A stretch of 64,000 bases of DNA from sequence record PP400777. The stretch is one strand, 5' to 3'. This document shows positions 58,220-60,253 of this stretch, piece by piece. The stretch's first letter is position 1. Each line of letters begins with the position of its first letter. Source of the DNA: Escherichia phage JM10. The notes under the pieces are model-generated. The model made no database searches. It saw only the letters and a program-made list of their open reading frames with translations, and was not told the origin of the DNA. The translations under genes and the position numbers were made by a program.

Positions 58220-58528
58220 TCAATTAGAAAATAAATTTATCCAAGTTTTTTCTTTAATCAAAAATGGGTCGGAATTAAACGCCATTAAACTTTGAGTGAT
58301 TAATCCCTTAAATGGCCCATCAATAAATTCCATTTTGAAATGCGGAATACTAGTCATCAACCGTGCATTAGGAGCAGTACAAAGAACCTGCTGCCCTGCG
58401 AACGGACCTTTAGTCAAACGATATCGTTTAGGTTTAAAATGGTAAATCTCGTAATTTTCTACAAGAGCCCTTTTATTGCATACTGGGCTGTTATAACAAT
58501 ATTCAAAAACTTCAATAGTGGTCATCAT
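58220..58528 (-). CDS. hypothetical protein (start adjusted to MMTTIEVF)
   Basis: Track ORF 58220..58591. Confidence 0.4.
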   Translation of the reverse strand: MMTTIEVFEYCYNSPVCNKRALVENYEIYHFKPKRYRLTKGPFAGQQVLCTAPNARLMTSIPHFKMEFIDGPFKGLITQSLMAFNSDPFLIKEKTWINLFSN

Positions 58529-59064
58529 TGCATTCCAATCACAAAAAATTGAGGACGAGCAATACCGCCGATGCAATATTTGCTTTTGCAACAGTGTTGG
58601 ACTGTTTTAATATGGACATTGTAAATCTTATCCATATCAGGAGCTTTAATAGGCTCGTCAATTATGTACAGAATACGAGAAAGCGTTAATCCACGGAATT
58701 TAGAACCTTCATTGCCAATAAAACTACGAACAGAATCAGTAAATAAACGGAATCGAATATCATCGCTAGAATAACGAGAAAATTCTTTTTTAATGTTGCC
58801 AGCAGAAATTTTAGCATAAGCTGAAGTATTAGAAAGAACAATAACAGTTCCGCCATCATACAACCAATTAGCAGCGAAGTTAGTCACAGCAATTGATTTA
58901 CCTGATTGTCTGCCGCCGTCTAAACGAAGTGTACAGTACTGCTTGAGTACATCTTCAAATGGTGGGACATAACCGTTCTTACAAATTTCTTCTACTCTAG
59001 CATCAGAATGGTGTGTAAAAGCATTCATCAGGGATAGATAAGGTCCAGTTAAAAATGTTCTCAT
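58525..59064 (-). CDS. P-loop NTPase, 179 aa
   Basis: Walker A DGGRQSGKS; Walker B ILYIIDEP. Confidence 0.55.
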   Translation of the reverse strand: MRTFLTGPYLSLMNAFTHHSDARVEEICKNGYVPPFEDVLKQYCTLRLDGGRQSGKSIAVTNFAANWLYDGGTVIVLSNTSAYAKISAGNIKKEFSRYSSDDIRFRLFTDSVRSFIGNEGSKFRGLTLSRILYIIDEPIKAPDMDKIYNVHIKTVQHCCKSKYCIGGIARPQFFVIGMQ

Positions 59065-59177: not shown

Positions 59178-59480
59178 TTATTTACCTTTAATTACTTTAG
59201 CTGCTTCGATAGCCGCTTGCTGAAGGTCATCCATAGACATACCGAATTTAGAAGCAAAGTTATCAATTTTCTTTTCGACAGCATTCAAAGGCTTTGCCTG
59301 TTTACCTTCATTAGCGCCAGGAAGAGCGAGAATACGCTCTTTGTCAATATAAAGGCTTACAAGTTTCTTACGGTCTTTATCGGACAAATCATGAAATGAA
59401 TGGGCCTTTTTATTTATAGCGGCTTCTAATTTACCTGCACTCACTCGCGCTTCAGTAATAAATTCTTGATAGGTTTTCAT
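59178..59480 (-). CDS. internal protein (IPII-like) with capsid-targeting N-terminus
   Basis: 100 aa; starts MKTYQEFITEA. Confidence 0.7.
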   Translation of the reverse strand: MKTYQEFITEARVSAGKLEAAINKKAHSFHDLSDKDRKKLVSLYIDKERILALPGANEGKQAKPLNAVEKKIDNFASKFGMSMDDLQQAAIEAAKVIKGK

Positions 59481-59508
59481 GTGTTTCCTTGTTTGTTTTG
59501 ATAGAGTA

Positions 59509-59538
59509 ATTATACCATATTAATACTTAAGCGTAAAC
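59509..59538 (-). promoter_or_regulatory. early promoter (-35 GTTTAC, 18 nt, -10 TATAAT)
   Basis: Plus attata 59509-59514 and gtaaac 59533-59538. Confidence 0.5.
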
Positions 59539-59541
59539 CGT

Positions 59542-59804
59542 TTAAGCTTTACCGCCAGAAATAATTCCGAAGTTGTTAAAATCATATCCAATATCGTCAA
59601 CATCTACTTTAGGACTTGCTACAACATAAGCAATTTCACTACGTTTTGCATAGGTGTTTTGATTTCTTTACCATCGCCACCTAAGAAAGAATACCCATTA
59701 CGTTTTAATGAGCCAAAGTCTTCCGCATCACCAATGAAAGCTTTAACTTTAAATTTAGGACCTTTGGCATCTGCTTCAACGATAAATTCTTGATACATTT
59801 TCAT
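59542..59804 (-). pseudogene. internal-protein paralog interrupted by an apparent frameshift
   Basis: 61-aa ORF begins MKMYQEFIVEA and stops at 59619; an adjacent frame is open from 59667 to 59542 (RNQNTYAKRSEIAYVVASPKVDVDDIGYDFNNFGIISGGKA); A/T runs near 59643-59660. Confidence 0.4.
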
Positions 59805-59971
59805 TTTTCCTTAGTAAATTGATTTACCAAAGTATTTGTACCAAGTCGGGCGTTGAGCAATTTTTTATCTAAGCGTGCTTGACTTATCGCAATGGACGCT
59901 TCGGACGGGTCATAATTTCCTCCAAGTAGTTGATGAATGTATAGTATCAAAACCCTTGGAGGAAGTAAACA

Positions 59972-60253
59972 CTATTTTTCTGAAGCGCCTGAAATATATT
60001 TTTCAAGACGTTGTTTCATCAGCGAGCCGTTCTTAGCAATTTCTTCCGGTTTATCGCACATACGCAACAAGGCTTCAAGCTTAACGATATCACTGGTGCG
60101 CTCAAATTTGCGAGTATCTATCTTACTAGCAAGTTCAGAAATACGTGCTAATAGACTTTCAGCTTCAACCAAAGCTGCACCTAGCTTAGTTGCAAATGTG
60201 TCAGTAGCTTCGTTAAGAATAGATTCTGATAAAAATTCACTATATGTTTTCAT
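59972..60253 (-). CDS. internal protein (IPIII-position) with capsid-targeting N-terminus (start at [11 protein letters not shown])
   Basis: MKTYSEFL; synteny adjacent to e. Confidence 0.6.

Follow-up and report, generated by a model that had tools for sequence, protein, structure and literature searches.

The window analyzed here, a stretch of 64,000 nucleotides from Escherichia phage JM10 (record PP400777), carries on its minus strand an e-denV-ip locus in which a small internal head protein gene, referred to below as IP86, is split between two reading frames. Read along this strand, the gene order is nudE, the e lysozyme gene (60750-60250), a gene for an Ip5-like internal head protein, a remnant of denV (endonuclease V), IP86, ipII, and a vs.8-like gene (59064-58525). 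The order in T4 is e, ipIII, ipII, denV, vs.8, with neither the Ip5-like gene nor IP86. No ipIII is found in the window, and ipII directly follows IP86. Lying between the denV remnant and ipII and downstream of e, IP86 occupies the position of a T-even internal head protein gene. The Ip5-like gene upstream (59972..60253, minus strand; phrog_3499) is intact and encodes 93 aa, and ipII downstream (59178..59480, minus strand; phrog_7857, E = 4.5e-55) is likewise intact and encodes 100 aa. The initial annotation had taken these neighbors for intact paralogs of about 100 aa flanking the disrupted gene. They are indeed intact, but their likeness to IP86 is limited to the leader, and the intact size of the disrupted gene is 86 aa rather than about 100 aa. 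With the window ipII only the first 18 residues align, and beyond the leader no likeness to the window Ip5-like protein was found either, the leader shared by IP86 and its neighbors spanning 10-18 residues. When IP86 was compared with the window ipII, no homology to a GmrSD inhibitor appeared in the mature region. A promoter-like site of the sigma-70/T4 early type is located between IP86 and ipII (59509..59537, minus strand; TTTACG, 17-nt spacer, TATAAT; 10/12 matches with an extended -10 TG), and the equivalent junctions in the record of phage Lutter carry annotated promoters. The site is one of the promoter-plus-leader junctions that recur through the cassette array. At the far end of the locus, the 179-aa vs.8-like protein (58525-59064, minus strand; phrog_1488, unknown function) gives weak P-loop/terminase-like matches (phrog_2 large terminase, 6e-5; Pfam Terminase_6N and AAA_14, E ~0.05) and is labeled "DNA packaging protein" in the Shinka record.

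IP86 begins with the capsid-targeting sequence MKMYQEFIVE (59775..59804, minus strand), with Y4 and F7 as targeting residues and I8-x-E10 as the motif for gp21 cleavage, which is predicted to occur before A11. In the leader of IPIII, positions 4 and 7 direct targeting to the prohead and positions 8 and 10 (L/I-x-E) direct processing by gp21 (PMC9026906), and MKMYQEFIVE has the residues expected of a T-even internal head protein leader both at targeting positions 4 and 7 and in the L/I-x-E motif at 8-10. A regular-expression scan of the 64-kb window returned only three ORFs with this leader pattern, all of them in the e-denV-ip locus. Apart from the leader, the T4 proteins Ip1, Ip2, and Ip3 have no homology to one another (PMC12373910), and each of them blocks a single type IV restriction enzyme of the GmrSD type (PMC12373910; PMC3012670). 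Ip genes are non-essential and diverse and act as specific GmrSD inhibitors (PMC12373910; PMC3012670); the other Ip proteins of these loci have been proposed to act likewise against GmrSD enzymes (PMC12373910).

The truncated IP86 ORF (59619..59804, minus strand), which reads MKMYQEFIVEADAKGPKFKVKAFIGDAEDFGSLKRNGYSFLGGDGKEIKTPMQNVVKLLML, has 61 codons and then a TAG. Homology to the intact protein covers codons 1-48, and codons 49-61 form an out-of-frame tail, KTPMQNVVKLLML. The -1 frame (59542..59667, minus strand) is open for 41 sense codons from 59667 to 59545 (RNQNTYAKRSEIAYVVASPKVDVDDIGYDFNNFGIISGGKA), ends with a TAA at 59544-59542, and encodes the conserved C-terminal part from YAKRSEIAYV... 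onward; no ATG, GTG, or TTG start of its own was found in it. TPMQNVVK is a peptide of the frameshift tail, and SEIAYVVASPK and VDVDDIGYDFNNFGIISGGK are peptides of the native frame. Direct reading agrees in these respects with the initial annotation, which had described an ORF of 61 codons with a capsid-targeting start, a neighboring frame open for another 41 codons to 59542, and A/T runs near 59643-59660. The runs are two A4 stretches on the minus strand, at 59657-59660 and 59644-59647, and the lesion lies in the former. Alignment to intact alleles identifies the causal change as a 2-bp AA insertion at 59657..59660 (minus strand), where ATCAACACC in the intact alleles becomes ATCAAAACACC in the window through two extra A's (AA to AAAA). 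In codons, GAA ATC AAC ACC TAT/TGT GCA AAA CGT of the intact alleles compares with GAA ATC AAA ACA CCT ATG CAA AAC GT of the window, and ATCAA[AA]CACC is the sole frame-changing difference in the alignment. The insertion may have been templated by a nearby CAAAAC repeat. Because the window is nucleotide-identical to intact alleles 3′ of the insertion, the insertion is young and has been followed by no further decay. Without both extra A's, the window yields an 84-aa sequence (read from the second Met, Met3) that occurs exactly in public assemblies (P0028, 4 contigs). The 41-codon open stretch alone is weak evidence for a broken gene, since 7% of windows of this length in shuffled sequence are stop-free by chance (20% across the six frames of the window). 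What settles the frameshift is homology rather than frame length: relatives have an unbroken 86-aa protein, of which one piece is the N-terminal and the other the C-terminal part. The suggestion of an internal-protein gene interrupted by a frameshift is thus upheld, the interruption being a +2 insertion relative to intact 86-codon homologs.

The intact form of the gene is widespread. IP86 is one 86-codon ORF in G4498 and Shinka, where the annotated 84-aa "internal head protein" (YP_010070226.1) starts at the second Met, and it is intact in JM17, FL18, PTE-Eco05, and G2469, which are the closest relatives of the window. A tblastn search with the intact protein found IP86 in ~217 phage records, nearly all as one 258-nt piece, with homologs ranging through Tequatrovirus, Mosigvirus, and Gaprivervirus at identities down to 64%. 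Profile search of the intact protein matched phrog_2667, "internal head protein," over residues 1-84 (E = 1.9e-19), and no Pfam family was matched. The ortholog in VR20 (YP_009207298.1) lacks a gene name and is flanked by ip10 and ip7. Five loci, all intact, were returned by a scan of IMG/VR, and their sequences were used for dN/dS estimation. Pairwise dN/dS among intact homologs is 0.05-0.39, from which we conclude that IP86 is a real coding gene under purifying selection. In a small alignment, the invariant residues of the C-terminal half are E56, I57, A58, K65, V66, D67, D70, D74, F75, F78, G79, and G84. The AlphaFold model of the intact family, computed from a five-sequence alignment, has a pLDDT of 53.7 and a pTM of 0.40, values too low to support a fold search or a judgment on whether the truncation breaks a fold. 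Separately, the last 23 residues of intact IP86 hit a 38-position profile of "unknown function," phrog_35655 (E = 8e-25). This profile appears to have been built from 3′ fragment ORFs of frameshifted copies and would then be an artifact of annotation.

The same +2 allele is present well beyond the window. An exact 70-mer containing the insertion was found in 7 of 147 matching records, namely FL23 and FL44 (pig faeces, Denmark) and Pu-Krd-SF1/2/5/6/7 (piglet faeces, Russia), which come from two laboratories. Three NCBI phage proteins are identical to the truncated product, which is also encoded on a MEGAHIT contig from ENA assembly ERZ27280748. The e/Ip5 flank of this contig shows only 91% identity to the window, and across the backgrounds that carry the allele, identity to the window outside the gene is 91-96%. 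In the Pu-Krd phages, the denV gene beside the allele is intact, and the haplotype differs slightly (TCT/CAT as opposed to CCT/CGT in the window). With at least two haplotypes represented, either recombination has carried the allele between backgrounds or it has originated repeatedly.

The initial annotation had left three explanations standing, a decaying gene in a variable locus, a sequencing error, and a slippage site. If the window sequence were a sequencing or assembly error, the true genome would have an intact 86-codon gene; the lesion does fall within a short A run, and the perfectly kept downstream frame is what an error would also leave. A change from AA to AAAA is, however, a 2-base insertion and untypical of homopolymer miscalls, and the same allele recurs in seven GenBank genomes of Danish and Russian origin, as well as in an independent Illumina/MEGAHIT metagenome contig, on backgrounds 4-9% apart. 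Since seven phages from two laboratories and an unrelated metagenome contig share it, the +2 allele is not put down to sequencing error, a reading that we consider highly improbable; checked against these other datasets, the window allele is real and naturally circulating. The remaining alternative is that programmed -1 ribosomal frameshifting or transcriptional slippage restores the full-length protein and that the two-frame arrangement is itself functional. A -1 shift anywhere in the 16-codon overlap of the two frames (59667-59622) would restore the native C-terminus, and the overlap holds two A4 runs. Against this stands the absence of every signal that was sought. No X_XXY_YYZ slippery heptamer occurs at any of the 16 zero-frame codon positions in the overlap, no A/T homopolymer of the length associated with slippage (~8 or more) is found in the gene, where the longest runs are A4 and T4, no stimulatory RNA structure was detected downstream (MFE -17.4 kcal/mol compared with a shuffle mean of -18.95, z = +0.51), and there is no Rfam match. 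Nor is the arrangement conserved: the gene is an unbroken ORF in more than 90% of relatives, and the remaining broken alleles differ in where the frame shifts and in its direction. We regard recoding as extremely unlikely, and the slippage site does not survive this comparison. The explanation that gains support is the decaying gene, in the form of a real, circulating +2 allele whose denV neighbor has also been deleted.

Other phages have broken IP86 in other ways. G2133 has a -1 change in the second A4 run and is annotated with a 58-aa CDS, UFV13 has a -2 change in the TATTCTTTC stretch (split CDS pair g127/g126), and Lutter has a +1 change in the same T-rich TATTCTTTC stretch (split CDS pair KMC16_gp126/gp125). 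The protein collection adds further frameshifted forms (P0006, P0007, and P0009), some of them from short contigs that may contain assembly errors, as well as in-frame deletions between 8-nt direct repeats (P0004 and P0011) and a denV-IP86 deletion fusion (P0012), where short contigs may likewise carry assembly errors. A 91-aa protein from a 1650-bp Logan contig (P0010) was rejected as an allele: it is a frameshifted copy with three stops read as Gln (TAG/TAA; LMLQQVLKQML) and most likely results from gene calling under an alternative genetic code and is not a real product. Disrupted copies are thus carried by viable phages (FL23, FL44, Pu-Krd-SF1/2/5/6/7, G2133, UFV13, and Lutter), and because different phages carry different lesions, IP86 is dispensable in viable isolates. 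In an evenly spaced sample of 60 records, IP86 was split in 4, and the Ip5-like control was split in 1 of 29 close matches; with no clear excess over the control, the claim that IP86 is unusually prone to disruption was dropped.

Recurrent disruption raises the question of whether truncation is selected and not a product of neutral decay. One version holds that the 61-aa leader-bearing product is itself functional or selected, for example, in escape from a host defense that senses the Ip protein. In its favor, four independent frameshifts in isolates cluster in 45 nt of the central region, and all of them leave the leader and 38-50 N-terminal residues in place. In addition, divergent backbones carry the +2 allele, and Ip genes are in an arms race with host defenses (PMC12373910). 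The broken alleles are nevertheless rare, at ~5-7% of records, which is not clearly above the Ip5-like gene (1/29 split). Other lesions remove different parts of the protein, including the N-terminus (P0011 and P0012), the out-of-frame tails differ among alleles, and the intact homologs are under purifying selection over their whole length, so that a function for the 61-aa product is very doubtful. A related view looks to the pattern of loss as a whole: cultured phages show at least four different lesions, metagenome-derived proteins add ~6, and the +2 allele sits on backbones 4-9% apart. On this view, repeated independent disruption would reflect selection to lose or truncate IP86, with a host defense perhaps sensing the C-terminal domain while the leader-bearing N-terminal peptide is still packaged. 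We give this only a slim chance.

The locus around IP86 has its own history of loss and exchange. Alignment with the intact denV of G2133 indicates that the denV remnant (59811..59913, minus strand) runs from the start codon and two further codons directly into the last ~33 codons, which are out of frame. Approximately 309 bp of denV have been lost between two imperfect direct repeats that match at 12 of 13 positions, one at the start codon (ATTATGaCCCGT) and the other 103 codons further on (ATTATGtCCCGT). What is left is a 9-codon ORF (MTRPKRPLR, then a stop) and an out-of-frame 3′ end with a further 1-bp deletion. G4498, Shinka, FL23, and others share the deletion, and denV is intact in G2133, Pu-Krd-SF, UFV13, and Lutter. 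The ip cassettes downstream of IP86 also vary: ipII alone in the window and Pu-Krd, ipIII and ipII in G2133, ipIII and a 157-aa Ip gene in G4498, ipIII alone in Shinka, and a 104-aa Ip gene with ipIII at this position in another relative. This variation fits cassette exchange at repeated promoter-plus-leader junctions. Over the 481 bases around IP86, the window matches FL23 and FL44 at every position and many other Tequatrovirus genomes at 97-98% identity. FL23 is only 95.6% identical in the surrounding 2.8 kb, and the best match over 7.9 kb is 97.9% (PTE-Eco05 and JM17). Because identity with FL23 falls from 100% to 95.6% in the flanks, the frameshifted IP86 can be placed in a short mosaic tract (480 bp, 59480-59960), and by these alignments the window phage is a distinct Tequatrovirus mosaic.

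Fused denV-IP86 reading frames were encountered in two other phages. In the wild-type layout, the denV TAA is in frame with the IP86 start and 9 nt upstream of it. In G53 (364-1044 of the locus) and vB_EQ1 (481-1161 of the locus), denV and IP86 form one 226-codon ORF. The denV stop of vB_EQ1 has been replaced by Gln, presumably by a TAA-to-CAA change judging from the protein (...KSIYQGKMKMYQ...), and the denV 3′ end of G53 reads ...YYGNQFTKEKMKMYQ, apparently by way of small compensating indels. A large protein search returned 12 clusters, the counts of which are unusable as an allele census. The main 90%-identity cluster (P0017, 475 members) mixes IP86 with the unrelated denV and has a 137-aa denV protein as its representative. 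Such merging was probably caused by denV::IP86 fusion ORFs, and because the cluster mixes both families, cluster-level statistics for either denV or IP86 are unreliable.

Taken together, these results lead us to read the window copy, at a probability of roughly 0.9, as a recent +2 allele, null or truncating, that amounts to a young pseudogene of a dispensable internal head protein gene in the variable e-denV-ip locus. The family is known but uncharacterized, and the window copy is most likely an ordinary loss-of-function allele and very unlikely to be a recoding site. What the gene product would normally do can be sketched by analogy with the T4 Ip proteins, on which the packaging, cleavage, injection, and anti-restriction role proposed here for IP86 are modeled. 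As in T4 IPI-III, an intact IP86 leader would take the protein into the prohead core, where the gp21 protease would remove the leader after I-x-E10 to leave a 76-residue mature protein with the N-terminus ADAKGPK..., and mature IP86 would presumably be injected with the phage DNA. The AA insertion after codon 48 would add 13 wrong codons before the TAG and give a 61-aa precursor, or 51 aa once the leader is removed. The truncated mature product would then comprise 38 native and 13 foreign residues and would lack the conserved C-terminal 38 residues. With its complete leader and 38 native mature residues, truncated IP86 could still be packaged; it is most likely non-functional, and we infer a loss of function. 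Such a loss would be tolerated if, as expected for Ip genes, IP86 is dispensable on hosts without the cognate defense.

Seen in this way, the locus is an example of turnover at the T-even internal-protein locus, with a 2-bp knockout beside a deleted denV and neighboring ip cassettes that have been swapped between phages. There is also a consequence for annotation: the window ORF should be marked as a frameshifted pseudogene of the 86-aa family, and so should the proteins of 58-61 aa labeled "hypothetical" or "internal head" in FL23, FL44, Pu-Krd-SF, and G2133. Moreover, the natural null alleles and their near-isogenic intact relatives (JM17 and FL18) provide material for finding the host defense that IP86 counters.

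Comparison with known systems places the window copy among the internal head proteins. Programmed -1 sites, such as A_AAA_AAG of dnaX and the G/GT sites of the tail-assembly chaperones of tailed phages, resemble the window in having two overlapping frames for one protein, but the window has no slippery heptamer, stimulatory structure, or conserved arrangement. Closer counterparts are the frameshifts in Lutter, UFV13, and G2133, which are independent lesions of IP86, represented in each record by one or two short ORFs, and differ from the +2 insertion of the window. The 84-87-aa "internal head protein" entries of phrog_2667 (G4498 YP_010070226.1 and VR20 YP_009207298.1) are orthologs of IP86, with 96-99% protein identity once the frame is restored. 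Like the window copy, they lie downstream of denV; theirs are intact, whereas the window copy carries the +2 change and ends at 61 codons. Compared with T4 Ip1-3, each of which inhibits a specific GmrSD enzyme (PMC12373910), IP86 is an uncharacterized Ip that is frameshifted in the window. The T4 genes ipI-ipIII are, like IP86, small non-essential genes of the e-denV-ip locus, and in the window IP86 adjoins one of them, ipII. Finally, T4 IPI, IPII, and IPIII share with IP86 the same N-terminal leader, M-K-x-Y-x-E-F-I-x-E, cut after E10.
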